A DNA stretch of 64,000 nucleotides from Orbicella franksi (Eukaryota). Under the pieces are notes generated by a model. The model was given only the letters and a program-made list of their open reading frames with translations, had not been told where the DNA came from and did not search any database. Position numbers and translations under genes: made by a program. The stretch covers positions 7,254,001 through 7,318,000 of the forward strand of contig OZ116707.1 of NCBI GenBank assembly GCA_964199315.1, given 5' to 3'. How positions within the stretch are numbered: position 1 is the stretch's first letter; each line of letters starts with the position of its first letter. Shown in pieces: positions 13,718 through 56,484 of the stretch.

Positions 13718-13854
13718 TCTGGCATGATTTTCTTTTCAATTTATTTCCCATTTTAGTTGATCTGTTCTGTTCTCTGGATTTTCTTTGATAAATTCTGTTA
13801 TTCTCTCTGGTCTTTTCAATATTAGTCATTCTGTGAGACCTTCTTATTTGATTA

Positions 13855-18982: not shown

Positions 18983-19253
18983 AGCAAGCTTCAGGTGGGA
19001 GTCGTTTCATCTGCTTTTAACAGTTTCTGTTTACAAGGTGTGCACAGAACCCTCATCCTCCTTGTGGGTGTGAAATGTAAACATAAAAAGAATAAAAGTA
19101 TCTTCGAGGTCAGCAAAGCTGTAATGTCAGTAATCAATATGCGAAGAAGTGACAATATTTTTATCAAAGAATTGTCTTCACTGGTATATACAAGGAGGTT
19201 TCACAGATTTTTTTTCCAATTGAAGAAGTATCTGCACAAGTATATACACCGAG

Positions 19254-23257: not shown

Positions 23258-23542
23258 AGACAGCAATTACCATTAAAGCTTTCCTGGGCTATTACAATAC
23301 ACAAAAGCCAGGGACTTACTCTAGAAAAAGCTTGGATTGATATTGGTTCACAAGAACGAACAGCAGGCATGACATATGTTGCAATCAGTAGGGTGAAAAC
23401 ACTTGACTCTTGTCTTATTGAGCCAATGTCATTTGAACGCTTGAAGGCCATTAAGAATGCATCAAACTTTCAATTCAGGTTTCAAGAAGAGGAGCGCCTT
23501 TCTAGCTTGGCAAATCATACCACCTCAAATTTCACTTACTAA
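23258..23542 (+). pseudogene. PIF1 helicase C-terminal remnant of RepHel (no endonuclease)
   Basis: RQQLPLKLSWAITIHKSQGLTLEKAWIDIG...TYVAISRVKTL...* (not in the ORF track; translated by hand). Confidence 0.9.
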
Positions 23543-23868
23543 CACCTGCCTACAAATCAATGAGTTAATAACTTCATTCAATTCATAATTATAATTAATA
23601 TACTTTTGCTATTACTAAACGAGATTGATAAAATTACTTTAAAAAAATACAGTAGGTTACTGCAAACAACTTTTTCTTTTTTTTCAAACAAATATATTGT
23701 AAAAAAAGAATAATTTATTTATTATGACCATTATTATATGAACATAACTTAATGTATCATGTTGCTCATACTAAGTAATATTTTATACAACTGATTCATT
23801 AAATTTAATCTCTTTCATATCTTTTCTTTCCTTTTTTATTTTTTCAGTGCTGCCACATTTACAGTTCC

Positions 23869-25047
23869 ATGGCAGCAAAGTGAAAAGGTTTGTATTCTGA
23901 TTGTTGTTTTGCCACTTTACAAAAAAAAAAATAATTTTCTGTTTGTAATTTTTCAATTCCACTTACTTATGCTTGTTTGTATATTTGTTTTTGCAGACAC
24001 TCCTCCGGGTTTTGTGCACTTGGTGTCACCCATGAAAAAGGCAAAGACTGGTAGAGATTACTACACATTCACCTTCCAAACGTCACCAAATAAGTTTACC
24101 AAAGCTATTGGCTTTGACCAGAAATCACACCAGCAAGCCATCCACTTTGAGAAAACAAAATCACCTTCAAAAATATTGAGTGCCAGGGATGATGATGGCC
24201 AAATCTTCATCAACCAGTATGCCTCACTCATAAAAGCTAATTCGAGTGACATTAAATTTGATCCCTGCAAAGAGCCAGCTTCTGCAGGCAGTGCATCATC
24301 ATCCAACTTTTCCCGAGACATCTGCCACAGATATTACTTTACAACAGCTCAATAAGCTTAGCAGAAACCAAAAAGTAAATGTCAAAGCCACGTTGACCAT
24401 GGGTTCTTTGGACCCAAAAGAACTTTCCAAAAGGAATGGTTCCAAAGGAAGAGTCAAGGAAGACTGTGTGCTAGAAGACAAAACTGGCCATGCAATTATC
24501 CATCTTTGGGATGATACCATTACAGCATTGACCAGTGGACAGAGCTATGAAATCAAGAACCTCAGTGTTAAAAACTTTAATGGCAAGACACATCTGGGAA
24601 CAACGATAACAACCACACTCACGCCCATTGACGCAGTAATGCACGAGCTAAAAGGAGAGGAGTTGTTATCTAACATTAAGAAGAAAATAACAGTTAATGA
24701 ATTTAAATTCACTGACAAAGTGAACACTTTCATGCTTTGCCAAATTGCTAACTGCAAAAAGAAAATGCCGTATGCCGTGGACTGTAAAGTGATCACTTGT
24801 GCTGCATGTGGCACCTACCAAAAAGTGGAAGTGGTGGAAAGGGGGATGTCAGCTCGGCTCTGTGCTGAAATTGACAGGAGATGTCTGGCTGACTGCCTTT
24901 ACAGATGTCATGAACATTCTTATCAAAAAAGTCAATCTCTCTTCAGACAACACCACAGATGAACTCAAAGCAGGACTCCTTGAATTGGAAAATGTAAGCA
25001 TCATCATTGACACTACATTCAACTTCATCTTAGAAGTTTTGGATTAG
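23869..25047 (+). pseudogene. RPA1-like multi-OB-fold protein with Zn ribbon (Helitron 2 cargo), spliced and frameshifted
   Basis: Exon 1 ATG 23869 (MAAK*K, donor 23888) joins in phase to exon 2 at 23997 (DTPPGFVHLVSPMKK...YYTFTFQT). OB-like VNVKATL...VLEDKTGHAIIHLWDD...YEIKNLSVKNFNG; CQIANCKKK...CAAC. Confidence 0.7.
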
Positions 25048-26554: not shown

Positions 26555-26908
26555 TCAGTAACCTTTCATAAAGATTTCGTCGTAGTTGTCGTCATACACA
26601 GGATAGCCAAGATAGTGTTTGACTCCATTTTTATAACACTCAGAACATAGTTCATTTCGGCCACAAGCACCGTCGCACTTATAGCAAAACATGACCTTTA
26701 CAATTCTTGATCGTTTTTTGCAGAAGGGTGCCTCTTCAATGGCATCATGTACCTCATCCCAACCCATTTCCTTCTTTTGCCTCCTTTTTATTGCTAGATA
26801 CTCCTTGTAAATTGTCTCATGAAGCTCTGGAGGGAGGTTTTGAATGGCCTCGGAAAGTTGACAGTTGTTCGATTACAGTACATCCGACGAATATCTTGCG
26901 GCAGCCAT
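26555..26908 (-). pseudogene. Small Polinton-associated Cys-rich protein with F-box-like LPPEL motif; one premature stop
   Basis: MAAARYSSDVL*SNNCQLSEAIQNLPPELHETIYKEYL...WDEVHDAIEEAPFC...CYKCDGACGRNELCSECY...LGYPVY. The first 290 bp are shared, inverted, with the pPolB relic. Confidence 0.5.
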
Positions 26909-28544
26909 CTCGGCGTATATACTTGTGCAGATACTTCTTCAATTGAAAAAAAATCTGTGACACCTCCTTGTACATACCAGTGAAGACAATTCTTTGATAA
27001 AAATAGTCACTTCTTCGCATATTGATTACTGACATTACAGCTTTGCTGACCGCGAAGATACTTTTATTCTTTTTATGTTTACATTTCACACACAAGGAGG
27101 ATGAGGGTTCTGTACACACCTTGTAAACAGAAATTGTTAAAAGCAGATGAAACAACTCCCACCATAAAACCGAGCGAACCTGTGAGCTGTTGGCTCAGGT
27201 TTGTACTCTTTAAAATATAAGTATCAATGTTGCTGTTATTCTTGACGAGTGTCAGTAAAATGAATTTTTACTCAGAGTTCTAATGTTTGTTTATTTGAGC
27301 TGCAACGCCATGAGTTGCAACGCCGTGATTCAAATAAAACGTAATTAATACGAGGTTTTAACCTTAGAAATATCTCAGAAATGGTGATTGTTTGTTTGTA
27401 GGTTTGTCTAGATCTGTTTCAGTTAAGGCTGTTACAAGCCTTCGGGGTGCAGAAGACGATGAGATTGAGAGACGAAAGAGGGAGGGGCTTGGGGCGAGGA
27501 GCATTTGCGCACTGTACTCTTCCCTATTCATTTTCTCGTACGCTTTTTTTTTCTGTCGAGTACCTTTGCACTGGCTGTTTCCTAATTAACCAGACAAGTC
27601 GCCAGAAACAGGCTAATTTTAATTGGGTATTCACAATTATAATAAAAACTGTGCTTTGATTATTTTGATCATAGGCGTATGCCCTAAATGCGGGACATCT
27701 TAGGCTTGATTACCAGCCGCTGTTCGGGAAAGGAGGAACGTAGACCGGACTCGAGAAAGCAGTGGAAATCGAGCCTAAGGACATCTGTGATATGTCAGAA
27801 CATTTGCCAGTCTGAAAGACTTGCCTATATATGAAGTTCGACCAATAAACATCGGCATGATTATAGTAAAGAGTACAGCGCCTGACACTAAAAGTGTCAT
27901 AGAAAACTCAACACAAGAGATTGTTTACGATTGTTTGTTTTAAATTTTGTATAAAGTTTCCCCCAGTTTTGTTCTCTTTATTGATTCAAGCAAAATGGTA
28001 CTGCAAACATATGTGGAGTCGCAGACTAGAACACTGTATTAAAAAAATAACCAATCATTTGTGACTTGATGAACAGTCGAATTATGAAGAAATGGATGTT
28101 AGAGAATTACAAAATGTCTACTTAAAGTGAGATCTAAAACAACGCAAACAGGTCCTTTTTCGCGTCGTTGTTTCTCTACACCCTCCCGGTGGGAATAATT
28201 TTGTTGTGTCACGCAACGCTACAGCAATCAAAGACAAATGTGCCCTTGGGTAAAGGAACATTTAGCTGAAATATATTTTGGGCTTTTTGAAAGCTTAAAC
28301 CTTGAAAGTGTACAAGATGTAAAATTTGGACGGAAAAAGGGATTGATCGATTCTAATATTTCCGATGAAATGCTCCATTCAAGTCAACGGGTGAAGTTAG
28401 AAGGTTCGCTGCCTCGAGTTCATTGAGCATTGGGAGGAAGAACTCACATGGATAACCAGGAAGCAACTTGCCTGGGGCAAATTTAAAGTCAGCCAGAAAA
28501 GGGTAAGACATTAAGGTAATTTTGTAAACAGAAATCTAAAAAAC

Positions 28545-31901: not shown

Positions 31902-34900
31902 ATTACTTATTAATAATATACATGAAAAAAAGGACAGAAAGAAATAGAAAACAAGTTGAATTTTGACACCGCACACCTTTTCTGATGTTCATTCAAGTTA
32001 TTGGTTGAACCACAGCAAACACATGTCAAGTTCAAACTTTCACAATAGCAAAATATTCAAATTCATTCAGCTGTAGACTTGGGAACTTTTGAGGATTATT
32101 TTCAGGCTTTTCTAACATTTCAAAGCACAACTCAGTTAAGTAATGTTCCACGTAAGAACTAGGCAAGGCAAATGCATGGAATGTGAAAAGGTGCTAAATA
32201 TTAAATTATTAACTCATTAAAATGGAGCTCGCTGATTGGCCGAGAACTGAAAAAACGTGTAAAATTGACCAAGAAATAATTTTTTTTGGTATTTTTTTGA
32301 TAATTTCGTTCCCAGATTCCTCTTGCCTTTTTTTGCCGATTTTGACCATTGTGGCATATGGGGAACTGGTACTAATCATTGCTCATGAGCGATTGTTCAT
32401 GGCCGCCATCTTGGATGTGTGAGTTTCGGTGATCTATCAATCTGTGATTTCGCTTCTTTGCTAGTAGTGTCCGTTGGCAGTCTTTACGAAAGTAGTGTAT
32501 TTTGCCTATTTGTGAGCCTTATCGAGTTCAAAATGTTGTAAGCGTTATTTAACGCGTCGGAATATGCCTCCAAAACCCTCTTGTTGCTGCCCGCAACATG
32601 CTGCTTGGGGACATGCTGACAACTCTGGAAATCTCAGAATAGCAACAGAGAAAGAAATACGTTTGTGTGGAGTAAATAGTGATGGTCAACACAACAGCCG
32701 GAAAAGAAGGATTTGTATTTCTTGCAGAGAACGCTTTCAACTGGAAAATAAATGCAACCAGTTTCAGGTAAGCTAAACTTCTACATTCCTTTTTGGGCTT
32801 ACAATGTACACGTACTTTATGCAAGCAGAGCAATTTCTTCATTCCTTGCTCATCAATACTCTTTATCCACTGGCAATTCATTCACAAGTAATTGCAATGT
32901 TCTCGGTGGTATGTAGGACTAGTTCCACTTGAATTATAGTGCAGAAATGCTTCAGCTTGTTACTTAACCACCTTTTTTCTAACTCCTTGCTTTTTTCTTT
33001 GCTATATGTCAGAAAACAGTTGAAAATATAAATGAGAACAACCAGATCCTAGAAAGCATGGTTTTGACTGCAACTGTTCCCGTTTGTGATAGTCAGACAC
33101 AAACAGATCCAAGCACCTCATTGGTGTCTACCACCAGCCAAGGCATTCAGGTTGGAGAGTTTCCAAACAGACCATACCAGTCATATGAGTGCAGGAAACA
33201 GAGTGAATTGCGGACTGAAATCATTGAGAAAATCGTTGATTTGTTCAATATCTATGTACATGGGGATAGTCTAGCCTTGCCCAACCTAGTTCAGGATCTC
33301 CTTCTGTCTAAAAAATGGTCCACAACCTTTTGTCTACCAAGTAACAAAGATGATTCAGCTGTGCAGGATAAGGTACTGCATTCCATTGTGAAGGAATACC
33401 GAGAGTGTAAGAATAAAGAAGCCAATAGCCAAATAAGAAAGCAAGGCAGAAAGCTAAACCAGGCTATCAACATTTCAGAGACATTGGCAAACAGCTCAGT
33501 AGCATTTCAAGGTAGCACCCCTGATTGTTCTAGATCTCGAACAGAAGCAGCATGTAGCATGGGAAGAGTTGTCTGTTATTCTGCTGAGAGAAGAAGGCTC
33601 TTGTCTATTGTTGCCTGGGATTATCCCCAAGTATTCTTGACTAAACTTTTTCATTGCTCCAAGAGTACAATTACCGCCGCAAGAGTTCACAGCATCTTGT
33701 TTGGCAGAGGAGGAGTACCCCCAGCATCTTTGAAATTTTCTCGCCAGTGCGTCCCCCGAGAAGTACTCGATCAGTTGGCTGATTTCCTCTTGAGAGATGA
33801 CGTGTCAAGGCCATCATCTTGCAGAAGTGTGGTAGTTGGAGGAGAGGAATGCCCTGTACGATACTGGCAAGATTCCATAAAGCAGTTAGTAAAGCAATAT
33901 CTATTGGAATTTCCTAATGGGGTAAAGAGAAGCTACATTTATGCCCATATGCCAAAGAATTACTGCAGCAACACCCTGCTGGCCGGCCTTTGACTTATAG
34001 CTACTTGTTGTTCTGACCATGGTTTTACATCACATGTATGTGCTACAAAAATTATTCATTTGCTGTTTAGCAGCCACTGACTGAGACTCAGACGACATTG
34101 AAGAAACTTGATCCCTTAAAATATCGGATTGTATACTTTGTATTTTGCAATGTGTGGACAGAGATCCTCTAAACAAATTGCCACTCTTTTACATTTGCCA
34201 TTATCTGTGTCTTGTTAGGTACAGAGACATTTAAGTTGTCTAGAGTTGTGCATGAATTATGCATTTCAGTCATGTAGCAGTGGCCATGATGAAGAATGTA
34301 CCAAGTTTACAACTGTTTATGACATCCACACAAGAATGTCTGCTGCCATTGCTACAGCCCCAGCGAATAAGCAGCAAGGCTATAAAGATAACCTGGATGA
34401 GTTTTTGAAGACCTCTTGGGATTACCTTGCCCACATTCTTAGAACAAAGCACCAAGGTGATTATTACAGGTGAGTTAAGTGTCTGTTGTGAATCTTGTAT
34501 TTTTGTTTTAGTTAGGCTGAGTTTGTATTGTAATTACTATGACCAATAAATATATGTAATGTAGAAATTGTTAGAAAATGGAACATCTATCAGGGAAGTC
34601 AGTATAATTTCATTTTAACTTTTCCAGCATTTTAAGATTTTTTTTATCAGACCTATCCATTGATAACAATTCACTCCCTCCATTAGTTTTGCAGTACTTG
34701 TTTGTTTATTTGTCTCCCTTAAATCAGTCCCTTATGTTTTCCATTTTATCCCCTACAGTAGTAGTAATGAGTATATTATAGATCTCAATATCTTTGTTAT
34801 AGGTATGTTTTGAAGAATCTTCAGCCAGGAGAAACAGTGGTTATTGTAGATTATAAATGAAACTCGAGCTTGGTATGCATGCCAGGGAAGTCCAGCGAGG

Positions 34901-35239
34901 CTGGTACGGAAAGCGCAGTGTTTCACTCCGTGGCTTCTATGTCGTTGCGCAAGTTGGTCCTGGAGAAAAGCGAATTGAAGTTCTTGATGTCTGGAGTGAA
35001 GATACCGAGCAAGATACCTGGTTTACTCAAAGTGCCCTTGATGTTGGTTTCGCTTGGATGGAGAAAGTTTATCCAAACTTTCATGTCTATCTGTTTTCTG
35101 GTTGGTATTTTCTTTTCATGGATTTGGACATTTCATTCTAATAATATTATACCTTTCATAATTAGTGAAACAAGCTTGTTTCTCAGCTGAAGGGCCTTAC
35201 GATAAAAATAAATTATTTCTACATCACTCTGTAAGTTGG

Positions 35240-35470
35240 GTTAAATCTGCAGTCAAGCCTAGTGGCCCATCAGGCCATTGCTGATCTCCAGTACGTGTAG
35301 CATGAACCAATTATAGAAAATCCCCCCCCCCCCACCCACCAATGCTGATCCCTGTACCCATTTAATACAGCTGGCTGGAGAGAGGCACTGTGAAAGTTGA
35401 CACAATAAGTCCAACCTGAACTTGAACACAGACCTCCTAGTGTACTGACCATAAGGCCACCATGCCACCC
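35240..35470 (-). mobile_element. Probable SINE (Deu/Nin-type-like) in an intron
   Basis: Sequence gtggcccatcaggcc...gtagcatga...gtacccatttaatacagctggctggagagaggcactgtga resembles the reverse strand of common marine-invertebrate SINE cores (recollection). Confidence 0.45.
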
Positions 35471-37871
35471 ACATTGCATGTAAAGTGATGGACTAGCATT
35501 TCAATGTTTCTGGCATACTATTTCAGGAGCCATTGTGATGAAATCTGATCAGGTGTAAATGTAAATTCTGGAAATGATTATCCATATCAGACAAAAAACT
35601 CTTAAGTTTAATATTTATATTTGATAAAATGCAATTATAATACACTGCTGTCAACTGCTGCCTTTTTTGCAGACAATGGACCCCACTACCACAACACAGC
35701 TGTGTTGTATCTGGCAGAGGTGAATTTGTCTCTCAACATCAAATTATTAGAGTACAATAACTTTGAAACTGGGGAAGGAAAGACAGTCCTTGACACCCAC
35801 TTTGCCCATGTTTCACATAAAATAGTACGTTGGGTTCGTGTGGGCAATGACTTGGATTCAGGAGAGCAACTAGCAAATCTCTTGGAGGTATTTAGAAATT
35901 AAATTCTAACTGAATCATAATTTGGGGTACATATAGCCTTGAATAAGTCTCACCACTTTTTCTTACAGTGCTCAAAAGTTCAAAGCTAGAGGAGTGTGTT
36001 TTTTTTAAGTTTGTGTATTCAAGCTAAGTTTGTAAATTAAGGTTCCCATTACTCTTTTTTTCCAGTTAACCACTTGGCCATCATAGACACTACTATCAAT
36101 ATTTTCTTTGTAATAAACCTGTTTAACAAACAATTAACGTGATAGAAGTCGAGGCAACAAGAGATAAAACCTTGCACGCCAAACTATAATATTTCCAATA
36201 ACAAATGTAGTCATAACAGATGTATAGAGAACAGTATGGACAAAGGGGTAGCTAACAGAAGAAACTTGTCTTTTTGCTTTAGACCATGAAGAATGTGAGA
36301 TGCAAAAAACTGCTGATTGATCGATCAAAGGCTCCAGGCAGGATTGGAACTCTTAAAAACATCTCACTTTTTGGAAGTTTCAAGTTTCCTTGTAATGGAC
36401 TAAATGCTGGTGGTATTGTGGCACAATCTTTGGCTGGTCAAGGAAAAACTCTGAGGAAAACTAAGGCACAAGTCCAGACTCTTTCAATGCGAAGCGTGCC
36501 AATAGCTAGAGCCACAGGTGCTACTGTGATGGAAGACATGTGGCAACAATCAGACCAAACAGTGGATGTGAATACAAATTCTCAAAGTGATTCATACTCT
36601 GTACAGTTCATTCAGCTCTCTACAGCTACCCCTGAGGAATTAGTCCTTGTACCTCAAAATGAAGCTTCAGTCAATGATGACCTAAGGCCTGCACCTGGAT
36701 TTGCCCTGAAAAAAGGTGGTGCAAAGAAAACCACATTCACTAACGAACAAAAAGAAATGATTCAGTTCTACAGTACTGTGCAAAAAGAATGCAAACGAAT
36801 TTCCTTGAAATTCGGCTATTGTTCCCGCGAAATATCGTAGAAATTTCGAGCGAAGAATCGTGATTTATCGGGCGATATTTCGAAGAAAATTCGTTGAGCG
36901 ACACGAAAATTCGCTAATCTAAGAACGGTATTTCGATGAGATTTCACCAGAAATGAAACGAAAATTCGCGTAGCTAAACGAAAAATCACAATCCCGAAAC
37001 AATATTTCATTGAGTGTCGGTAAGCGTATGGTATTTATGAATGAATGGAACTGACAACTGTACACACAGCCCTTCGATGACCTTCAAAACAATTAAGCTT
37101 AAGCAATTAAGCTGAGTGTCAACACAACCCGAATGAAACTATTCAAAAGAATTCACAAGATATTTCAAACCTACAAGCTTAACGTTTATTCGATCAATAG
37201 TTTGTGTATGAAGAGATACGACAGTGTGATGCTCTTACCAGTTTGACTGTCAATAACGTTCTATCTAAGCTTACATTCTCCTCTGTCGTGAAGTCCTTCG
37301 ACTTTCCTTTGCCGTTCATCATTCACAAACAACTCAACATGTCGAGTCTCCTGTCGAGGCATGGTGTTGACCTCCACTGCCGTAAAATGAATGCCTAGCG
37401 TGCGCCGGTAACGTCAAGAAATGCGCCCTCTAATTCCCTCATGGACTGACGCCATTTTGGATTTCATTCCATTGTTTGCCCTCCATATAAGGAAGGTAGG
37501 TCCCAGTCTTCAGTGAGTTGTGTGTGTGTTTGTAACAGGCGAACGAGACGTACATGTATTGGGATGAAACAAAAACTTAACTTTTCCAGTTCAGACGTCT
37601 TTAAGTGTACACTAGTTCATGTCTACGAGCTATTTAATTTAAAAGGGGGTTTTATGTAGGTGATGAAAGGCAAGTTATTGGTTATAATCATTCAAAGTAG
37701 TCGCTTTGTGAGTCACTGCGCGAGTGAAAGTGCACAAAAGAAACCGCTTTTTGAAGTTTCTGTTTGCATGAAGATAAATTGTCTACATTCTTCGGCTTTT
37801 TCTTTGCCGAGTAAAGTTTTATCAAAAAATGGTTAAATTGTGATACAAACTAAACACAGGGTTGAGACGGC

Positions 37872-37975
37872 ATTACCGCATTGTATTGACGGCTAGTTGG
37901 GAGAAAATATATCCTGGCGGGGCCCAACAGGAGAATATATTTTCTACCAACTAGCCGTCAATATAATGCGGTAAT
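37872..37975. repeat. ~104-bp near-perfect hairpin inside the Tc1
   Basis: ATTACCGCATTGTATTGACGGCTAGTTGGGAGAAAATATATCCTG / CAGGAGAATATATTTTCTACCAACTAGCCGTCAATATAATGCGGTAAT. Confidence 0.85.
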
Positions 37976-38320
37976 TACATTATAATGACGAAACATGGAT
38001 TTTAATCTTGTCTATTTATTGCCAAATACAAATACAAGAATAGAACAGCAAAAGTGAAAAAAAAAGATTCCCAAACCTAGATCTATAGAAACATTGTGCC
38101 TATTGTTGAGAGGTAAAAAAAATGCCTAAGCTTGTCTATTTTTATTTCTGGTGTTTTGGCATCTCTTGCCGATGCTAACTTTGCAAGTTTCCCACATCCT
38201 GTTCAGCTCCTCAGAATTTCGGCACTGGTATCCGAATGTCTGCACAACTTCCGCTGGAAAAAAAGAGAAACTATGAATAAGTTTTGTGAAAATTCTCCAT
38301 CCTTAACCATCCTTGAACTT

Positions 38321-39329
38321 TTAGTACTTGGTTGCTGCTCCATGTAATTCAACCACAGCTGGAATGGCTTTGTACAAGACATGGTCAATATATCTCGCAC
38401 ATTTCGTTGCATCCACCTTCTTCCTCCAAAACTTCTTAATGCCGTCGATCAGTTCCTGTTTTGAGCGGGGCTTGACCTTTGTTTCCAGGTAGTATTTCAG
38501 CTCGTGCCAGAGGTTCTCAATTGGGTTTAGGTCTGGGCTCTCCGGGGGGGTTGGCCACCAGTTGATCCCATTCTCCTCAAAGAACATTTTGGCTGCTCAT
38601 GAAGTGTGCTTAGGGTCATTGTCCTGCATGAAGCGGTGATCCGGGAGCTGCGCATTGATGAAAGGCACCAGATGGCTTTTAAGGATATCGCAGTAAAGGT
38701 CAGCAGCCATGATTCCTTCGAAGATGCAAATTTTCATCCCATCTTGTCTGCTTATTCCAGCCCAAACGTGTAATTTCAGCGGGTGCTTCGGTTTAGGCTT
38801 TCTTCTTGCAGGTTCGCCGACTTTCCTGTAACATGTACGGCAAAATTGTTCAAGGGAGACTGAGCATTCATCAGTAAAAATGACGTTGTCAAAAGTATCG
38901 CCGGTCTCTAAAACTTTCTGGGCAAACTCTAAGCGTTTGACTTTGTTCACATCTCTAATCAGCTGACAGTATCTCGTTCGTTGAAGAGTCCAGCCCTGCT
39001 ATTTTCGGGATCTCCACACTGTTGATGGATGGACCACGACTCCACGTCTGGCTAACTTCTCTTGGATCGCGCGGCTGGTTGTTTCATCATCCTTCCGCAT
39101 CTGATCTTCTATAAATGCTCTGGCTTCAGCATTTAACTTTCTGGGTCTTCCAGTACTCATTCCTTTCTTCGTGGATCCCGTGAGTTTCAGTTTCTTGATT
39201 ATACGCGTGACCGTTGTGAAACTGACTTTCAAATCTTCTCCTTTTAACACCTTAAACATCTCCACTGGATGAAGATTTTGTCGATAGAGACTCAATTCGA
39301 GTACGCGTGTAGTTTGATACGGTGGGCAT
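38321..39329 (-). pseudogene. Tc1 DD34E transposase with two in-frame stops and a 5' frameshift
   Basis: GRPRKL, VIFTDE, LHVWAGIS, FMQDNDPKH, SPDLNPIE (34 residues between the second D and E). Confidence 0.93.
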
Positions 39330-40364
39330 GATTGCTCAGGAGTAACTGACGATCGATCTTTGAATGTATGGATATAAACAATGGTTGCCATGTTTACGCG
39401 ACCATTTGCATCACACTGTGAGCATGGAGATGAAGTCTCAGGAGAGTTAATGAACTGGGTAAGTTTGAATTTTTAAATACAGAGGGATGTTTACATCTGT
39501 TTTCAAACATTGTTCATAGAGTGAATTTTCGTGCGACTTTTCGCCGCGCTGCGAACTCTTTCTCTTGAAAGTTCGTTACTTTCAACAATATTTCGCGTGA
39601 ATATTCACGCGGTCTTGCGAAGAAGAGCCTGAATTATCGTTTTGATTAAAACAATAGACCTTTCGAAAATTCGTCGAACTTCGTACGAAAAATCGTTTCA
39701 CTCGAAATTTCTTTAAATTTCATCGAAAAGCACTGAAAAGTCGCGAAAAGTAGCGAATTTCGTTTGCATTCTTTTTGCACAGTACTGTATGAGCGCCAAA
39801 GGTCATCTCAGATAAGGGCCAATCCAGCAGATGTTATCAAAGCTATGAAGGATGCAGGTGTTCCTGAGCTGAAAGAAGCTCAAATCAAAAGCTGGTGGAG
39901 CAGGTACCACCGTAAACAGAAGCAGTTGGTGGATGATATGATGGAGGAAGCTCATCAACTGAGATCTCAACAGCAAGGTACTTTTGCATGAACAACCGTT
40001 ATCACAAGGATCCCACTCTGTTGTGAAAGGAAGATAAACCAGCTGCCTTCAGCTTGTTTACCTGCCTATAATATTCATATGATTTTATTGACTACTGTAG
40101 TTTAATACGTGTAGCTTACTCAAGGCAAATGACCAGCCCCGTGTCTCCCATGGCCAAACCAAGTAAATTAGACTTAGGTGTATGTGAAGATGTGGCAGTT
40201 TAGACGAAAAGATGGTTTGGAGGGCATACTGTTGTGGTGGACCCAGCTTAATTGGTGGATGTTGCCATCCCATGAGAAAAATCACTTTCCAAAGGATATG
40301 TGTTTTAAATTTGGCAACTACTATTTTATCTTGTGATTTAGTGTCATGTTTTGGATAACATTTC

Positions 40365-40507
40365 AACCTCGGGCGCTATATAAACAATAGCCTCCATTTG
40401 GCACAAAAATATGCTAGGATATTTGTCCACAGACATTACCTGTTCTGAGAAGCGAACAGTTTTCCGAGAGTACCTCCAGGAAAACTGTGAGCTTCAAGGA
40501 ACAGATT

Positions 40508-40538
<31 letters not shown>

Positions 40539-40710
40539 TGCCCCAAATGGAGGCTATTGTGTTTACTATTCTTCAGATCTTTTTCGCAATGAACAGTTTT
40601 GAAAATTGGGAATATTCTCAGATATTCCCCAGTTTTAGCTGGGGAATATTTGGTCACATGACATGTTTAGACCAATCACACACGAGCAAACATCTTTGAT
40701 GGATTATAAC
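40365..40710. repeat. Palindromic-core dispersed repeat (long copy) in an intron
   Basis: Arms AAACAATAGCCTCCATTTGG...GGATATTTGTCC / GGACAAATATCC...CCAAATGGAGGCTATTG (40382-40564). A second copy lies at 42157. Confidence 0.75.
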
Positions 40711-42156
40711 GTTCCATATTCCTACCACCTGAAGGGCTCTATTTAATAGATGATGTAAATGAGTACTCTGCACTGTTCTGGTATATGCATTCAGTGTGCA
40801 TGTATATATAATTCGCTTGTTTGTCTGTTTTTATTAAAGGTGCTGGAGTCAGTGGAATGCCAAGAGCTACAGATTCCCTCCCTGATTTCTCGCCTGATCC
40901 TGTTTCTCAGCCTGCTATTCCAGACCCAACTGTACCACATTCAACACCAAATCCAACTATTTCAGATCGAGCTGTTGCAGTCCCTACAGCTGTTTCAGAC
41001 CAACCTGTTCAAGCTAGAGTGCCCCCTCAACCATGGATCAGAGCGTCCACCTCTTCAAATTTGACTGGGGTCACTGAATGGGGTTTCAGTGAGTCTCAAT
41101 CAGACATCCAGGGAAGGACTGGGAGCAATGCTTGTGTGTTCATTGCTCTGTATATGGGCAAGCTGTGTTTTGAGAACAATTTGGCATGGCCCTCCGGCAA
41201 CCTTCTTCCTGAGTCCTGGAAAACATCACTGAGAGAAGCACTGATCAGAGGAAACCAAACTCATGATGACCTGTTTGACCATGAGGGAATAAATGTGACT
41301 GTGGATGATGCAGTTTCCATGGCTGGGGAAGAATGTGGAGTGCAAAGATTGGGACCGCAGGTGGACATCTTTGGTATCAACCCAGTAAATCAGCTGGCAA
41401 ATTTGCTGATTCGAGAAGCCCAGAATTTGTCAAGATCGTTTAATGTAATTGTTTTGCATGAGGGTGCATTTCTTATTACTGTGAACTCTGAACAGTCTGC
41501 TATTATTATTGACTCACATTGCCACATCAACAAAGGAGCTATAATTGCATGTTGTCAGACGGGAAATATCCTTTCCCTGGCGTTGTGGATGGATGCCATG
41601 ATGAATGCAACTTGGCAGTGCTCGTTAACCATAGCTTTGATATCTAAAGTATTTTACTGAAAATATGCAAATCCCGTTGGAAATGATTTCTTAAGAGTAA
41701 TATAACAAAGCAAAAGAGTGGAGGGCGTGTATTGTATCCAACTTAACTTTTATTTTTCTTTGGTTTTAAACATAAACTTGTCATATCAATTGTTTGATAA
41801 AATGGTTCTTATTTGAAGTCAAATTTCATTGTTTTTTTATCGATAACTACTTGTTATTTGTACAGGAATAAACGTAAGATAACTACATTATTTTGCAATA
41901 CAACTAACGATAAAAAATCACGACCTATCGACCTTAATTAATCGTTGATTTTTGTTGTAAAATCAAACTCTAAAAAAATACTCGTCAAGAACTACGCTAT
42001 TGTGACAACAATAACATGAACATTTAAGTTGCAAATGGAAGAAAATTTCATATTTACTACACGAGGTCCACGTCATTTTTGCTCTCAGGGAAGCAGTGTC
42101 TTCGTAACTTTTTTCCGTTTATATCGCACAATCATAACATCGAGAATAAAATTAAT

Positions 42157-42322
42157 AAACAATAACCTGCATTTGGTTCGGAAATATGCTCGGATATTTG
42201 TCCGTGGGCATTATCTGTTGTGCAAAGCTCACAATTTTACTCAAACTATGCTCTCGGAAAAATGTTCGCATCTCGGGCAAATATCCAAGCATATTTTCAC
42301 GCCAAGTGGAGGCTTTTTGTTT
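42157..42322. repeat. Second, shorter copy of the 40382 palindromic repeat
   Basis: AAACAATAACCTGCATTTGG...GATATTTGTCC / GGGCAAATATCC...CCAAGTGGAGGCTTTTTGTTT. Confidence 0.7.
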
Positions 42323-42627
42323 ATATATGCTCACGAGAATGGCTCATGATCGAGTCTAAAACTAAGCTTGCATCTAAAAAGTAATTCAATTAAATTTTAG
42401 GGAAACCCTCAACATTTTATTAAGTTTTGCGATTTATAGGAAGAATGTTGGAATTCCTTAGTTCACAAGTAATCAAGACGGCAGGTGATAACGCCCTTTT
42501 GTAAGAAATCGTGCCGTTATTTGCTCACGCGCATGATTAAACGAGTTGCACGCGTGGAAAATTTGCTGGGCTGTGCACCCTTAAGTTCCCCTGACTTGAA
42601 AAAGATTGCGTCATGTTTTAACAATTT

Positions 42628-42981
42628 CTAGAAACGAAACTTGTGCAAAAGTGCAACAATCACTGCACGTATCTGATTATATCGCAGATCGGTTTCATCA
42701 AAGATCTGTCGAAGGGTTACTCCGGGACTTGTTAGACATTCCACCACACGGGCAAATTCCCCTTCAGATATTTCCATTTCCTTTAGGAGTCGATCGCACA
42801 TCGCACTGTCTCCTCGTCCCTAGGCAATCATGTCAATGGTGTATATTTCAGCTGTGGCTTCTGCCACTTGGAATTTTTGGGTGATCTCCCAAAAAGATTC
42901 TCCATTACACCATCTTTGAAACGCCGCCTCTTTTTTCAGAAAATTTGTTATTTTGCCATATACTTTCCTCAAGCTACTAGC
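42628..42981 (-). pseudogene. Terminal exon encoding a helical domain resembling the RecQ/WRN C-terminal HTH (HTH_40-like); one internal stop
   Basis: After the acceptor cttag|: ASSLRK...AAFQRWCNGESFWEITQKFQVAEATAEIYTIDMIA*G...GVTLRQIFDETDLRYNQIRAVIVALL*. Translated by hand. Confidence 0.45.
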
Positions 42982-43122
42982 CTAAGATTTAAAAGAAGAC
43001 AAAAGATATTAGTAAAACTGTGGCTTTGCTCATTACACATCCTAGATTGTCTACAGTGGTGAACAGTCGGTATCCGGTTAGTGCATACTAACGCTTACCA
43101 TGAATATAACATAAAAGGTTGT

Positions 43123-46100
43123 TGTGGTGTTTGCGGAACAAACAGAGACTGGATTTGACAACACAATGTTTTGATCCGCCATTTTAGATGGTCTCTTCTA
43201 TTCAAGCACATGGTCACTTCCAAATAAGGAAATACCATATATGGACATACACTACATCCCTCCCTAACTTAATAAAGAGCTCCACAAAGTCTAATAAAAA
43301 AAAACATATGAACTAATCTTGGCTCTTTCAGTTCAGTGTCTCAAAACAAATGAATAAAATGTCGACAATTGATACACGATAAACAGTCTTTAGAGTTCAG
43401 TCACTTTTGGCAAATAAAGTCCTTCATCCACTTAGGGCTCTCTCTTTTTATGACTGGACGACTATCTGGCTTTTCTGGAACTGCAGAAGGTACAGTTTGT
43501 CTTTGGGAATCCAGCTGAATTCCATCCATCGAATCTTGCTCGAAACTAGCTCCTTCTTTGGGTGTGTCAGTTGTTTTTGACGGAGCCGGGGGCTCAGTTC
43601 CTGAAGCACCTGGGTCTACAAACTTCTTCATGTGACCAGTATTCCTCATTTTACTTTGGCCAGAAGAATTCTCAATGATAACTGCATTTCCATTCTTCTC
43701 TACTACTCGATACGGCTCGAGCTCAAATGTTGGTGACAACTTGTTCTCGCGGTTCTGACGTAGCAGGATCATGTCGCCCTCTGCAATGTCACTTGTTGTG
43801 GCATGTCTCTTTGAGTCAGCATACTCTTTCTCTCTTCGCTTCCTGCGAGCATACCTTTCTCTGAGAAGAATTTGCCACTCTGCTTCAGTAGCCTGATCAC
43901 AAGGTTTAACCTGTGGCAACTTATCTCTTAACTTTCTGCCCATAAGGAGCTCAGCTGGAGATAGTGAAGTGACTGTATGGGGAGTGCTGCGATACTGGAA
44001 AAGAAAGTCTTGTACTTCTCTCTTCCAATCTTTGCCTTGTAGTTGTGCTATTTGGATTGCCTTCAGGAGGGTTTTGTTGAGCCTCTCTACTTCGCCATCA
44101 CTTTGAGGCCAATACGGGATGCCCTTCTTGTGATCAATCGATAAGTACTCGAGGAATCCTTCAAATTCTCGTGAAGCAAATGGTGGACCATTATCACTTC
44201 TGAGGGTTTCAGGCAAACCATGAGTGCGAAACATGCTCTCCATGCATTTGATCACATTTCCTGCATCTGTCTTGGTCAGAAAAGCTATTTCTGGCCACTT
44301 AGAATAATAGTCAACTACAACGAGCAAGTGTCCCTTCTTTGGAATCTCTAGTAAGTCCACAGCAATTTCACTCCATGGGCCTTGAGGCAGTGGTGTTGAC
44401 CTTATTGGTTCTGGCTTTGGTCTGGGTCCAACCAGCTGGCATGGGTAGCAGGCTCGGATTAACTTTTCAACTTGTTTGTCAAGGTCTGGCCACCATAGTT
44501 TCTCTCTTAATTGAGATTTCGTTCGCACCATCCCTTGGTGACCCTCATGAGCCAGTTGAATGGTCTGGTTTCACAACTTTTCTGGAATGACAACTTTGTT
44601 TCCTCTCATAACCAGCCGTCCCATTATCCAGAGTTCATTTCTAACAGCTTTGTAGGTTGTTCCTTGGAGTTTCGACCAATCACCAGAAGTTATGGCATGG
44701 CGAACCGGTTGCAGGGTAGGGTCTCGCTCTGATTCACTCTCAACTTGGCGGGGTGCTAATGCTGCAGGTATGGCATCAGCAACTATGCTGCGTGCATATT
44801 CTTCTGTCTGCTTGATGGCTGCATCAGGAGTACTATCTACTGGCAATCTGCTCAATGCGTCAGCGGTGTTTTCTCTGCCAGGGATGTGTCTGATGCTAAA
44901 CTTGAACTGCTGCATGTATAACAACCATCTTTCAATTCTGGCTGAAGGTGGTTTTGAATGTGGACCAAACACAGTGACCAGCGGCTTATGGTCAGTGCAA
45001 ATTTCGAACTCATTTCCATGGATGTACAGGAAGAACTTCTCACAGCCCCACTTCACTGCCAGTGCCTCCCTCTCAAACTGAGAATATCTGCTCTCAGGTG
45101 GAGTTAGTTTTCGGCTAGCATAGTGTACAGGTCTGTACAGGCCATCAGCTTGCTTTTGTTCCAAGACAGCTCCGATACCTACTGGTGAGGCGTCTGTGGT
45201 GACACGGGTCTCCGCTCCTTGTTTGAAGAATGCCATGACTGGTGCCTGCGTCAGCTGCATTTTGACTGCTTGGAAAGCCTTCTCTTCAGCAGTGCCCCAT
45301 TTCCATTTGGCATGTGATTTGGTTAGATCCCACAGTGGGCTGGCAATGATCGCGAAGCTTGGAATGAACCTTGAACAATATTGTGCCAAACCAAGGAAGC
45401 TTCGCAGCTCTGACTGGTCCTTTGGTCTTGGTGCTTGCACAATGGTTTCAACTTTGTCACCAGATACTTGTAATCCCTCGTCAGTTAGCACGTTACCAAG
45501 GTACTCCATGCTATTCACGCCGATCTGGCACTTTTCATAATTCAGTGTTAAGCCACTCTCTTCTAATTTCTTCATGACTTGATTCAACCTTTCGTCATGT
45601 TCTTCTTCAGAAGCGCCAACTACACGGATATCATCATGAATATTGTGAGCGCCAGGGCAATCTTTGAGTATCTGCCAGATGATGTGTTGGAACTTCTCAG
45701 TGGCCATATTGACACCAAATATCAGACGTTTGTAGCGGTAAAGACCATTAGGTCCTGCAAAAGTGGTAATGTCTCTTGACTCTGGAGCAAGTTCTACTTG
45801 GTGAAATGCCATGTTCAAATCTAACTTGGAGAACACTTTTGCCCCTGAAATTTCTTGCAGTGTCTCTTCAATGGTAGGCACAGGGTGTTTTTCTCTTAAT
45901 ATCACTCGATTGGCTTGTCTCATATCTAAACATATGCGAACATCACCATTTGGCTTTTCGACACTAACAAGGGGGTTAATCCAACTTGTTGGACAGTTCA
46001 CTTTCTCTATCACATCAAGCTTCTCAAGTTCCTCTAGTTTGTCAACAACCTTTTGTTTCCTGCTGAACGGAATTCTTCGCATAGCTTGAGCAACTGGGCT

Positions 46101-47592
46101 GACACTTTCATCTACATGCAGTTTTAATTGGAAATTTCTCAATTTTCCAAGACCAGTAAACACTTGAGGGTACTTTGCCTTAAGGGCAGCCTTCTTATCA
46201 GTAACATCTTTGAGTTGACAAGCGTTCACAGAAACACCCACTTTCAAGACACCTAATTCTTCAGAAGGGCTCCTGCCCAGCAATGTGTCTGTGGAGCCTG
46301 GCATTACGAAGAACTCAGCTTTCAACGACGTTTGTGTATTAGGTACACTAATGTTCAACATGCATTTTCCTCTAAGCTTTAACGGCTGCTGAGATGCATA
46401 AGCATAAACTTTCCTGTCAGTCTCTAACAACTCTAGCTTTCCATTGGACACTTTATCAAACACTTGCTCAGACATTAAGTTGCAGGTAGCACCTGAGTCT
46501 ATGATGACATTGACAGGTTCACTTTCAATCATAAGAGGTAAAGTGTTTGACTCACCATCTGAGGTGCTAAAGACATAGAATCCATCATCTTTACTGACTT
46601 CGCTTCCTTCCACGTCATCTTGGTCAGGCTGGTCGCCTATGGTTCGTACGCCTTCTCGTTTTCTTCCAGATTTGCCTCTTCCTTTGCCATGTTTATCCTG
46701 TTTCGTGTGACAACAGACCTCCATGTGCCCACGTTTTCCACATTTGCTGCAAGTATGGTTACGAGAAACTTTACAATCTTTCGCCATGTGACCTGTCTTA
46801 TCGCATCTCCAACATTTGCCTTGCCATGGCTGCTTGCTCTTCGCTCCTTTATCGCCCTTACTTCGGTCTTCCCAGGTACGATTCACAGTTTCTTCGCTTA
46901 CGAGAACCAAGGCATCCTTATGGTGATAGGTGCTCACGATTTCCAGAAGTCTGGTCAGACTAAGGTTTTCTTCGCGGTAGAATTTGCCCTTCAGTTCCTT
47001 ATTCGTGATATGCGAAATCACAATATCTCTCACCTGGTTATCTTCTTCTTCACCATAGTCACAGTGTTCCGCTAAACTTTTCAAACGCGTAACGAAGTTG
47101 TTGATCTTTTCGCCCGGATTCGGCTGGCTGGCAAGCAGTTTTTGTCTCGCTAGAGGTACGTTCTTCTTCACTTTGAAATGGTCCGAGAGACACTTCATCG
47201 CTTTATCGAACTCTTTGTTGTCTCCTCGCACTTCAGCTGAATACGTTTTGAAAATTTCACAGACTCCAGGTCCTGCGAGATGTAGAAGTAGAGCTCACTT
47301 TTGCACTTTGTCTTCAACCCCCGAAGCTGCCACAAATAGTTCGAACTCAGCTTTCCACTTGTCCCAGCGTTGAGCCAGTGTGGCTGGTTCCCCAATGCAG
47401 TCGAAGGGAGATATGCACAGTAATCCACTTAATGTGACCGCCATCCTCGTCGCCAAAATGTGGTGTTTGCGGAACAAACAGAGACTGGATTTGACAACAC
47501 AACGGTTTAATCCGCCATTTTAGATGGTCTCTTCTATTCAAGCACATGGTCACTTACAAATAAGGAAATACCATATATGGACATACACTACA
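43123..47592 (-). mobile_element. Full-length compact Ty3/Gypsy LTR retrotransposon (4470 bp)
   Basis: 134-bp LTRs at 47459-47592 and 43123-43256 (TG...CA, 4 mismatches); 5-bp TSD GTTGT; PBS TGGCGACGAGGATGG (47441-47455), complementary to the tRNA-Ser(GCU) 3' end; PPT AGGGAGGGA (43257-43265). Confidence 0.97.
43401..47444 (-). pseudogene. Single-frame gag-pol (2 CCHC knuckles, PR, RT, RNase H, IN) with two in-frame TGA stops
   Basis: CWRCDKTGHMAKDC, CSKCGKRGHMEVCC, IIDSGAT, NIHDDI, TDASPVGIGAVL, EREALA, ADALSR, HEGHQG...CYPC, SDNGPPF, GEVER. All in one frame; stops at 47295 and 44571. Confidence 0.95.
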
Positions 47593-48413
47593 GTTGTCAC
47601 TTCAATTTCTATTACTATTATCATAGAAAGAGTGCAGACATTCGAAGTAGTAATACACTACGCTTACAGAAGTTGCCTTTTTGTGTTTCCACTCGCCACT
47701 GCTTCCCTGAGAGCATTCCCCTTCATCTCCGCCGGCAGGTCTTTTCAGGTTCCTAGGTAAGTGGATAAGAAAGCATGATGAATACACGCAATCTTCGCCC
47801 AACAAATTTTATAAACAGGTTCACCTGAAAAAAGATCATTCAAGAGGTCGCACTTACTTCCTTTCCATCTCTAAAGCAGAAATCTTGGTACGTGAACCTC
47901 AAATCTTCGCTTCGGTTGCACGTGCTTTGGCTAGTGTTTTCAGTATCAAGAAGTGGAAGAGAGTGGCACATTTGAATAAAAATTTTCTCACATCTGATGT
48001 AAAAAGGTGGCAAATTATTCTGAACAATGACCGAATAACAACTTCCCATTGTCTCGAAAACAAAAGGAACTTCAAAACAAGGGTCCTTGGTTTATGTGCT
48101 AAAGAGAAAAACAGACATGATTGAACACAAAGTCCGAAAGAAAAACAGTTTGTGAAGTCCACTTTCTTTTGGAGAGACCGGTGAGGACCAGATTGAAGAT
48201 GAAGTCAATTTCGTCAGTAAATGATGTATCACGATTTTATGATTCTGAGAGATCTTGGGAAAAATGTAAATTGTAAACTTATTCCAAAAAAATTCACACC
48301 AAATGAAACAGCACTGAAATGATTGCAGTCCGTGACTTGTGAATGCGCTTTTTGTGTATTGTGAGCACACCCCCAAAGGTATCACGCCAATTTAGTTCAA
48401 TATCAAGTTCAGC

Positions 48414-49025
48414 ATGGATGTTTGTTTGGTACTTTCGATTCATGTGTTTAGCTTTCTGGTGGATAAGGATCAAGTTAGCGCAGCAGGAGTGTGTTACAAG
48501 TGGTGGAAAATGATTTTTGGAAAGTTCTCAGTTCTAAGAGAAGTGGAGTGGCAAGAATTAGATATTTCAGGGACAGGAAGATTGTATCGTTTCATCCCAC
48601 TGAGGATGTTCGCAACATTGGAGCGCCTAAATATGTCCTCGACTATGATAACAAATGCTCATTTTCAACAGATAGTACAGGAGGCGAGGAATTTGGACAG
48701 TCTGAATATCTCTAACTGTTCTAGTTTAGACCAAAGCTGTATTTTTCAAGTCAAACAATATGTGAGCCAGCTGAGACATGTGGACATCTCCGGAAACGCA
48801 AAGTTTACCATTCTTACGGTCGCATGTCTTTGCTCTTGTGAAAATTTGGAAATCCTCATAGCGCATGAATACAAGTTTAGCGCAGAAGAACTACTTTTCC
48901 TGCAGAAAACTTTTGAATCGATTTCCAGCGGAACTTTGGAATTTGAAACCAACGATGGGTACAATGCACTGGACGTGATGACCACATTTGCTGAAGAGTT
49001 GTTCGGAGACGAACTGTTGTTCTAG
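48414..49025 (+). CDS. Intronless F-box/leucine-rich-repeat protein (203 aa)
   Basis: N-terminal F-box-like LSIHVFSFL...AAGVCYKW, then LRRs LDISG, LERLNMS, LDSLNISNC, LRHVDISGN, LEILIA. Confidence 0.7.
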   Translation: MDVCLVLSIHVFSFLVDKDQVSAAGVCYKWWKMIFGKFSVLREVEWQELDISGTGRLYRFIPLRMFATLERLNMSSTMITNAHFQQIVQEARNLDSLNISNCSSLDQSCIFQVKQYVSQLRHVDISGNAKFTILTVACLCSCENLEILIAHEYKFSAEELLFLQKTFESISSGTLEFETNDGYNALDVMTTFAEELFGDELLF

Positions 49026-51045
49026 CCTTTCTCGTTCTTGTCTATCCAGTTTTGAAAAGAATTAACTTAGCGTGTATCGTATGCCAGAGTTTGTTTCCTA
49101 AATAAGAACCGTGTGCGTAAAGAAATATTTCTTTTTTTTTTGCGAAATGCCATCGGCGGCACACTGTACTGGAGGTAATTTTCGAGCGAATTTTGACGTG
49201 TGAATAAACGAGAACCAGGCATATGACTAAGCCAAGAGTGTCTTGTTACCCTACGTGCCCTAGCTGGCAGCTGAAGTGATCAGAAATAATACTTCGCCAT
49301 TTATTATGCATCTGAAACTTGACAAGCTAGTAGTTTTGATCGTCATAAAGACATGGCAACTGTTTTTTATTTCGAAAATAGCGTGTTTTGTTCTGAAAAC
49401 ATGCTTACAAATTCAAATTTTGCGCGCTATTCGCAAATAGCCAATCGACAAGGCAGATTGTTAATCATTTTTTTTAATTATCGCCTTTGACTCCAACGGT
49501 AGATTGTGTAGTACACCCGCTGGTGTTTGCCTAGTTCTTGCGTGGATCATTACTTAATAATAACCCACAAAAGACAACCACAGAACATCTCTGAAACCAC
49601 TCTTGCCTCGTTGCTATCACATGGATCACAACAATGTCACTGTCTTCATGAACTGGTACACAAGAGCCAAAACAGAAGACAAAATAATGTGCAAAATACA
49701 ATGAAAAGCCAACAGCAATCATGATTGTTATCGCTGTGATCCTTTGTTTGTGATCATTGCAATTACATGGAATCAAAGTTAAAATATTAAGTTAACTATG
49801 AAACCAAAATTTGTTTTGCATTTTAATAGACTAAAACAGCTAGAGGTCTCATTACATTTTGATTATCCAGATACTCACGAGAGTGCTGAGTGTATGGTTC
49901 ATTCAGGGGGAATTGTTTTCAACACAAGGAGGACCTTGTGTGTCTGGTTTTGTGCTTGCTTATTTTCCCAAAAAAATTGAGCAACATAATAAAATTTATT
50001 ATACTAGTCACAGCAGCAACCCATCGTTAGAGCGGTTTGATTTGATATGCCCAAAGCCTGACACGTGTCAAGGTCATTTTATATCCATATGGAGTTGGTG
50101 GGGTTAGACAAAATAAGTTATCATAATTTCAGCTAATTTTAGCTGTTGAGTGGAAGTTCATTACCTAATTTTCACAGTCAATATTTTGCATTTGGGAGTA
50201 GTGAAATAAGTGCAGCATAGATACAAACCCAAACACTCAAAGGTTAGTCAGTAAGCACTTCAGAAACGGGCATCCATTAAAGAGCAACAAGAAAATTGTC
50301 TTGACAGCATAATTGTAAAAGAATATAAAAGTAATTTTGTGGAAACTACATGTACCTTCATCTTCTGTCTGCAGAGAAGAATATAATGTGATTCAAACTA
50401 AATCCAGTGTGGAATTCGAGTTGTATTACTTTTAGCTGCACAAAAATCAAGTACCAGAATAATTGAAATCCTGTTGCGTTTTTCTACCCTTTTTTAAAAC
50501 TAAAGATGTGAGTAATTTTCCGTGATAACACCAACAACAATTTCCTATCAGAGCCTGAGAAAATGAATTTCAAAGCTCACAAGAACCATGTTAACTATGG
50601 GTAAAATAGCTATCTTTTAAGTGATTCAGTGAAATTCAGTGGAATTTCGAACTTTGTTTTCGATGTGTGGTGTTGTTAGAAATGATTCCTTTTGATAAAT
50701 TATTTGAAACAGAAACACAAAATTTTGCAATAAGATGTAAATAGTTTTGCTACATAATTTTTTCCAGTTGAAGTCCTGGTTGATTCCATCTTAAACATAG
50801 TTGGATACATAGCATATAAAGTTAAACAGGAATTTCCAGAGGAGAGGAGGTGTTCCAACCAAGACACCTGTGAGGGGAGAATAGATATTTTGTGAAACAA
50901 TATATAATAGTGCATAATATTGTTTCAGACATTTATTGAATAAACATACACATAGTACATGTACATTAAATTAATCAATTCAGTGAGCTTTAAAAGAGTT
51001 ATTTCTACTTGCTAACAATGCTCATTGTCTTCCTAACTACAGCAC

Positions 51046-56235: not shown

Positions 56236-56484
56236 GCTTTTCACGACAGAATCAGGCCAGATGAACCACCAGATCCGCAAACACAAATGAAGAGAACAGT
56301 CCACAGGTCAAAAGGACAGATGATTCCTTGTTGAGGTATTTTTGTTTGACCCGAAAGCCTCACTTTTGCGTGCACTGAAAGTAACACCACTGAAACGTGG
56401 GCTCAACTGTAATAACAGCTATTGGAATAATGCAAGTTAATGTTCGTTTGGCTGCTCTTCCTATTCCAGAATACTTGGATTTCC

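Follow-up and report, generated by a model that had tools for sequence, protein, structure and literature searches.

A Sola-like cut-and-paste transposon of corals with a transposase that ends in a predicted VTD/C76-type deubiquitinase domain

Can a cut-and-paste transposase carry a deubiquitinase of the herpesvirus tegument type as its last exon, and what would such a domain do there? The question is raised by a 64,000-nucleotide stretch of the coral Orbicella franksi (GCA_964199315.1, contig OZ116707.1, positions 7,254,001 to 7,318,000 of the forward strand), here called the window. It is repeat-rich animal DNA of ~38% GC, and coral metagenomes are among the sequencing runs that contain it. 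In it an initial annotation had described a Sola3-like transposase fused to a putative C76-like deubiquitinase (DUB) at 32564..41660. Those limits hold for the gene, on the plus strand; the whole element is wider and runs from 32136 to 49557. We conclude, with a probability of roughly 0.7, that the locus holds an anthozoan cut-and-paste transposon in a broken copy, and that its intact relatives encode a protein of ~1,200 amino acids, with a DDD catalytic core, a helix-turn-helix (HTH), a flexible linker and a C-terminal domain of the VTD family, a predicted active DUB that likely shields the transposase from ubiquitin-driven destruction.

The transposase gene has seven exons in the window, with GT and AG present at the five junctions checked. 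Exon 1 (32564..32767) encodes a Cys/His-rich N-terminal finger (32582-32725); it is joined to 33013 in the spliced relative L003, and homologues are present in L004, L015, L017, L041-43 and L048. Exon 2 (33013..33993) covers the N-terminal region as far as the CxxC in a second Cys/His cluster and ends in a stop at 33991. Its final 152 nt and its donor are missing: positions 1351-1502 of L003 have no counterpart in the window, and contig 9 of RNA run X15 has 161 extra letters at this point. Exon 3 (34219..34469) contributes an HxxC/CxxxH cluster, whose residues C23, C26, H82 and C85 (P0170 numbering) are conserved in 48-50 of 52-53 aligned rows, and a helical region. The first catalytic Asp (34849-34851), in VDYK (34846-34857), lies in exon 4 (34803..35100) and is followed directly by a 1-nt frameshift, the window having one A fewer than L003 at 34853-34856. 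The intron 35100|35673 interrupts the codon of the second Asp, in S-D-N-G; exon 5 (35673..35887) completes that codon and adds the third Asp (35792-35794) in LDTH (35789-35800). Exon 6 (36283..39977) is interrupted. Part a (36283..36770) comprises the post-core region and the start of a homeodomain-like HTH (alignment A2; FTNEQKE at 36736-36756), part b (39788..39977) the rest of the HTH including QIKSWW (39881-39898), and the HTH is split between them by a Tc1/mariner insertion on the minus strand (36771..39787; 3,017 bp, TA duplication, inverted repeat I13) with a degraded DDE_3 transposase, for which Pfam DDE_3 and HTH_32 score above cut-off. A Tc1-free form (joint 36758>39788) was seen in three of four sequencing runs; in the open reading frame (ORF) of L003 the HTH gives a weak Homeodomain match (E 0.79). 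Between a donor GT at 39978 and an acceptor AG ending at 40839 lies the last intron, after which exon 7 (40840..41660) encodes a Pro/Ser/Thr-rich linker (40840-41069) and the VTD/C76-type protease domain (41070-41657), with the motifs GSNAC (41121-41135), GNQTHD (41250-41267) and D-S-H (41511-41519) and, as landmarks, Cys 41133, Asp 41511, His 41517 and an acidic pair at 41304-41309. The motifs and splice sites cited by the initial annotation were thus all recovered. It was silent on the state of the copy, which is broken by the 152-nt deletion, the frameshift, the Tc1 insertion and a Gypsy insertion described below.

The fusion of transposase and protease is real, beyond reasonable doubt. L003, which is 95-98% identical to the window and Tc1-free, joins 32767|33013, 34469|34803, 35887|36283 and 39977|40840 exactly, keeps the intron 35100|35673 and has its own stop; it is taken as a cDNA because its introns are removed precisely. 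Protein P0001, which comes from the same family and has an internal deletion, has the first and last junctions joined. Exact 39977|40840 joints in both bear out the proposal that the transposase transcript includes the last exon. In the diverged relatives L004 and L015 a stop-free ORF (1,190 and 1,177 amino acids) covers the sequence from a point ahead of the first Asp through the whole VTD, and in P0015, P0019, P0155 and P0160, which belong to other clusters, exon 6, HTH, linker and VTD form one uninterrupted ORF. Scanning metagenome contigs with alignment A3 gave 48 loci, all selected by their VTD with a search pattern from which the Cys, Asp and His of the catalytic site were absent. The frame is open from the second Asp to the VTD in six of these loci, and 31 have matches to core or post-core exons; among the other 17, four match exon 1, one matches the accessory gene and 12 match nothing, eight of the 12 having little upstream DNA. 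Over 22 sequences, VTD and transposase distances are correlated (Mantel r 0.76, p 0.0005) and the two trees yield the same main groups; 27 loci with short coverage were omitted from this and from the dN/dS analysis. The named homologues come from stony corals and anemones, and no relatives were found in viral contigs. A domesticated host gene is ruled out by the inverted ends, the many families and the decayed copies.

Several relatives have rearranged structures. L041, L042, L043, L048 and P0001 are internally deleted derivatives that retain exon 1 and the VTD and have lost the core, the two lying within 180 nt of each other in L043. In L027 and L039 (~4080-8350) a core exon and the VTD are separated by an inserted 4.3-kb element whose inverted ends measure 511 bp. 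A core homologue of 65% identity (L049, 79-447) stands on a 1,128-bp contig of a bacterial metagenome-assembled genome and is likely host contamination.

There is little doubt that the last domain belongs to the family that has been called VTD since 2022 and is known in Helitron transposons (PMC9741609). The domain has 221 relatives in a full-library search, and profile A1, built from 55 sequences, finds the Waddlia VTD 8ADB in the PDB (E 1.9e-5) with the Cys and the D-x-H aligned; Atlas links the domain at 0.96 to clusters in which 11-17% of members have PF04843. Its predicted model (pLDDT 96.8) superposes on VTD/C76 structures, as expected from the proposed papain-type fold with a Cys...D-x-H site: in VIA (48,161 chains) it scores Z 19.4 to 8ADD, the zebrafish Helitron VTD (root-mean-square deviation, rmsd, 2.6; 176 aligned), Z 16.7 to herpesvirus M48, 2J7Q (rmsd 3.1, 177 aligned), and Z 15.6 to 8ADB (rmsd 2.8, 165 aligned). 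In the Foldseek comparison that the initial annotation had recommended, six of the seven hits at E<=0.001 are VTD/M48 chains and the seventh is AvrPphB. C22, D148 and H150 are all conserved in 33 of the 34 loci that cover the three positions (14 loci do not). The VTD is under purifying selection, judging from sequence divergence: the median dN/dS is 0.23 for the 63 unsaturated among 231 pairs, which are not independent of one another; the five pairs of lowest divergence give 0.06-0.22. By analogy with assayed members of the family, the domain is probably active on ubiquitin or NEDD8; 8ADD is an active Helitron DUB that cleaves K48, K63, K11 and NEDD8, and NEDD8 is also cut by the Helitron enzymes DrT1-VTD1/2 (PMC9741609).

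A midpoint-rooted FastTree of 60 proteins and the 22 sequences groups all the transposase-linked VTDs in a single clade (support 0.89), separate from those with RING, with another transposase-like region or with Serinc. Its labels were assigned by pattern, 39 being unlabelled and P0021 mislabelled RING, and clades were judged without a formal test. P0223 is a full-length distant relative, 31% identical over the core, that lacks a VTD, so the VTD was likely captured later than that split. The RING-VTD and Serinc-VTD proteins share the domain family and came up in that full-library search; they look like separate captures because they form separate clades and have other N-terminal partners. P0113, P0121 and P0128, in which the VTD is fused to Serinc membrane proteins, form one well-supported clade and are possibly a domesticated host gene. 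In P0082, P0086, P0100 and P0110, which have their own clade, the VTD follows a short region that we read, with no Pfam hit, as resembling the end of a different transposase.

The boundaries of the element were found outside the gene. At the left, TTAA and a 27-bp terminal inverted repeat (TIR) beginning GTAATG occupy 32136..32166 on the plus strand, and at the right a TIR and TTAA lie at 49527..49557 on the minus strand, identical at 29 of 31 positions to the reverse complement of the left end. Contigs of three runs start precisely at 32136. The window, L004 and L015 share a similar left end, ~425-428 nt upstream of exon 1, and in L006, L018, L022 and L023 a similar right end lies ~620-660 nt past an HTH_40 ORF; the end motif was derived from these same ends, so that their position, not their count, is the evidence. 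The L018 contig ends at TTAA and the right end of L023 has TAAA; overall, TTAA is present at six of the eight ends examined and TAAA at two. The TTAA could be a target duplication or part of the TIR, no empty site having been seen. Minus the Tc1 and Gypsy insertions the element is 9,925 bp long, and read depth, which is not copy number, suggests few copies.

Beyond the transposase the element holds two further genes. A remnant of an accessory HTH_40 gene lies at 42628..43062 on the minus strand, convergent with the transposase and with an in-frame stop. Homologues stand in the same place after the VTD in L006, L018, L022, L023, L027 and L044; those of L006, L018 and L022 score 40-43 bits against PF14493 (cut-off 27), and the window's own pieces have no Pfam HTH_40 match. 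Next to it, at 43123..47592 on the minus strand, is the nested Gypsy-type long terminal repeat (LTR) retrotransposon, with 134-bp LTRs (D3) and a 5-bp GTTGT duplication. Inside the right end an intact 203-amino-acid ORF (48414..49025, plus strand) has F-box-like and leucine-rich repeat (LRR_4) Pfam matches, both at E 0.0033 and under cut-off. It is the sole part of the element with stranded polyA reads (~0.9x) in X22, a raw polyA run with another species label of which ~12% was read. It has no tblastn match in the 48 loci, four of which reach the right end, and its exact sequence is missing from the protein collection searched. By its predicted domains this ORF would be a ubiquitin-ligase adaptor beside a deubiquitinase.

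Which superfamily does the transposase represent? Its core carries D179, D263 and D304 (P0170, L004 core) on an RNase H-type strand/helix pattern, with the same Asp residues in the window, and Atlas places it near DUF7869 clusters (0.94). In VIA it reaches Z 8.3 to Mos1 (rmsd 3.7, 161 aligned) and ~8 to integrases, tied with helical-bundle noise; two results count against the assignment of the core, namely a model pLDDT of 70.7 and a Foldseek search with nothing at E<=0.001. Sola elements have a DDD triad, 4-bp duplications, TIRs of 11-1,124 bp and lengths of 2-9 kb, some exceeding 15 kb (PMC10741241), and Sola cores likewise lack Pfam matches (PMC5751038). The coral element shares with them the DDD triad, TTAA flanks, TIR and size range, Cys/His clusters before the core and the lack of a Pfam match, and membership of the Sola superfamily is likely. 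Sola3 elements target TTAA and mostly have long TIRs starting GAG, with oomycete members as short-TIR exceptions. The TTAA target agrees with Sola3, whereas the 27-bp TIR starting GTAA disagrees with those typical ends; the C-terminal VTD and the HTH_40 gene also set the coral element apart, and we know of no HTH_40 accessory gene in Sola. We describe the element as Sola-like without assigning it to Sola3.

A DDD lineage of its own outside Sola, unnamed and targeting TTAA, would be supported by the short ends starting GTAA, the L004 and L015 ORFs in which no Pfam family scores above cut-off, and the conserved accessory gene. We consider such a lineage unlikely, although far from negligible, since the triad, 4-bp flanks, TIR length and size fall within the Sola ranges (PMC10741241) and Pfam silence is equally true of Sola cores (PMC5751038). 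A bolder version, doubtful in our judgement, would combine an undescribed TTAA-targeting DDD lineage, apart from the named Sola groups, with an active tegument-type DUB throughout the anthozoan radiation, as one of several independent captures by coral transposons. Other superfamilies were rejected. Kolobok elements have TTAA duplications, short TIRs and in one case a RecQ helicase on the opposite strand, and thus share TTAA, short TIRs and a second gene with the coral element; their termini are 5'-RR/YY-3' with a C/DxxH signature between the second D and final E (PMC9587614), whereas the coral ends are GT..AC and its 41 residues between second and third Asp hold no C/DxxH. PiggyBac, Zisupton/KDZ and Helitron are excluded by the lack of DDE_Tnp_1_7, KDZ or RepHel domains in the L004 and L015 ORFs.

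What the VTD does for the Sola-like element can be proposed from its relatives. DDE/D transposases cut with their core at the inverted ends and insert at the target. The intact coral protein would bind its inverted ends and insert at TTAA, the HTH and Cys/His regions binding DNA, while the VTD, tethered by a variable-length linker, may strip K48, K63 and K11 ubiquitin and perhaps NEDD8, as do Helitron and herpesvirus VTDs. This preference is suggested because the domain is closest to the Helitron VTD and its model ends in a strand, without the C-terminal helix that is tied to K6 specificity in VTDs (PMC9741609). The VTD might act on the transposase itself or on proteins close to the transpososome. 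Protection from proteasomal degradation has been suggested for transposon (Helitron) VTDs (PMC9741609), and by analogy we tentatively put forward self-protection as the main role of the coral domain, with the odds slightly below even. Another possibility, a less probable one, is that the domain, active as a DUB or deneddylase, steers repair by acting on cullin ligases or on chromatin and repair factors where the element is excised or inserted. This was proposed for Ulp1 and OTU domains on Ginger1 transposases (PMC2836005); it would fit NEDD8 cleavage by Helitron DrT1-VTD1/2 (PMC9741609) and a long, unconserved linker that tethers the domain to a DNA-bound protein, whereas PMC9741609 prefers proteasome protection for transposon VTDs. 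The data do not distinguish these roles, and self-protection is the one that we favour.

The assignment of the domain to the VTDs has to be weighed against a Pfam scan that gave no family at E<=1, and so no match to PF04843 (Herpes_teg_N), and against a sequence identity to solved VTDs of 10-13%. Moreover, the fold alone is no proof of a ubiquitin substrate, because VTDs are near to non-DUB proteases of the YopT type. A single-sequence PDB search with the domain gave no match. The domain could be a YopT-like cysteine protease, which would cleave its own transposase or a protein of host defence, and the next structural neighbour is indeed AvrPphB (Z 13.7 in VIA; rank 4 in Foldseek). We regard this as improbable. 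D-x-H is invariable in VTDs and the order in YopT is Cys-His-Asp (PMC9741609); the coral domain has the VTD order, and its linker shows no conserved cleavage motif. In addition, D79/D80 sit 57-58 residues past the Cys and D376/E377 of DrT1-VTD2, which bind the ubiquitin R-x-R tail (PMC9741609), 54-55 residues past it. These positions, acidic in 45 and 47 of the 47 covered loci, would be equivalent to D376/E377, as matched by spacing alone.

Some observations also weigh against a fused gene. No transposase match occurs in the 2.6-4 kb upstream of the VTD in L037, L038, L040 and L047. In X15 the listed contig runs unspliced through the donor to 40257, the spliced 39977|40840 joint is not among the 15 joints listed of 140, and depth is 14 on the VTD exon vs 24-44 on upstream exons; in X22 the coding exons have no depth. 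Choosing loci by their VTD makes VTD-less members of the lineage invisible, and a VTD is found in one of 45 core homologues, of which those inspected stop inside or just past the core and are hence uninformative. Searches for longer homologues returned P0001 alone with the domain and, with alignment A2, P0169 alone, apparently a chimeric gene model without a VTD. A last exon that was a gene of its own, or the result of a single exon capture beside a dead transposon, would account for the read-through contig and the four loci lacking an upstream transposase, but is barely credible against exact splicing in L003 and P0001, the single ORFs of L004 and L015, the uninterrupted exon 6-HTH-linker-VTD ORFs of four further proteins and the congruent trees.

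How new, then, is the fusion of a Sola-like transposase with a VTD? The coral domain shares its fold and its Cys...Asp-x-His site with the VTD/C76 enzymes (M48, UL36, BPLF1; DrT1-VTD2, 8ADD; Waddlia Wc-VTD1, 8ADB/8ADC), although at an identity that falls under Pfam PF04843 detection. Helitron VTDs likewise reside within a transposon protein, but the coral carrier is a TIR/DDD cut-and-paste element and not a rolling-circle one. Ulp1 and OTU fusions to other transposases, mentioned in the initial annotation, are published for Ginger1 and Mutator (PMC2836005); these are likewise cut-and-paste, multi-exon and found in cnidarians, with a C-terminal cysteine protease for ubiquitin or ubiquitin-like proteins, and differ from the coral element in protease class and transposase superfamily. 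Cnidarian VTDs fused to transposon-associated domains are the subject of one sentence in PMC9741609, in whose accessible text 'Sola' does not occur; nor do 'Sola' or 'DDE' in three of its supplements. VTDs in Helitrons, OTU or Ulp1 on cut-and-paste transposases and unspecified cnidarian VTD-transposon fusions are thus already published. In the accessible literature (Repbase and most subscription papers were outside this scope) we found no DDE/D transposase, Sola-like or otherwise, described as carrying a VTD, and the fusion is not described in the available portions of PMC5751038, PMC3985635, 10.1101/2021.09.26.461848, PMC4455052, PMC10294476, PMC5199201, PMC12314368 or PMC9297572.

The window harbours other mobile sequences. 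The last intron of the transposase gene contains, outside the coding exons, a high-copy palindromic repeat (40379..40565; inverted repeat I4) with very high depth and many loose ends. A degraded Helentron-type Helitron at 10460-14682 (minus strand) retains OTU, DUF6570, PIF1 helicase and AP-endonuclease pieces, its OTU being a second transposon-borne DUB class within the same window. A further OTU-domain ORF at 22764-23276 (plus strand), after which come ORFs (23795-24962) similar to those at 8228-8965, is flanked by long inverted repeats (18994-19289 and 26873-27163). The window also contains a tyrosine-recombinase-like ORF at 6036-6563 (minus strand), a second recombinase-like remnant, in our reading and with no Pfam hit, at 51920-52887 (plus strand), a THAP ORF at 55759-56307 (minus strand) and a RING/TRAF zinc-finger ORF at 524-1081 (plus strand).

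Transposases have acquired Ulp1, OTU and now VTD domains, whose role in transposition is speculative in both PMC2836005 and PMC9741609, and the Sola-like element provides a compact system in which to test it, with defined 27-bp ends, a TTAA target, L004 and L015 ORFs that are spliced and near-complete, and a single catalytic Cys. The finding also marks a multi-family coral repeat that gene annotation has wrongly split or fused (P0169, P0079), and it adds cut-and-paste elements to the Helitrons as transposon reservoirs of the DUB family known from the herpesvirus tegument. If the undescribed lineage proves true, it would point to a ubiquitin-based host defence against transposases, a defence that this copy may also tap via a captured F-box/LRR gene.

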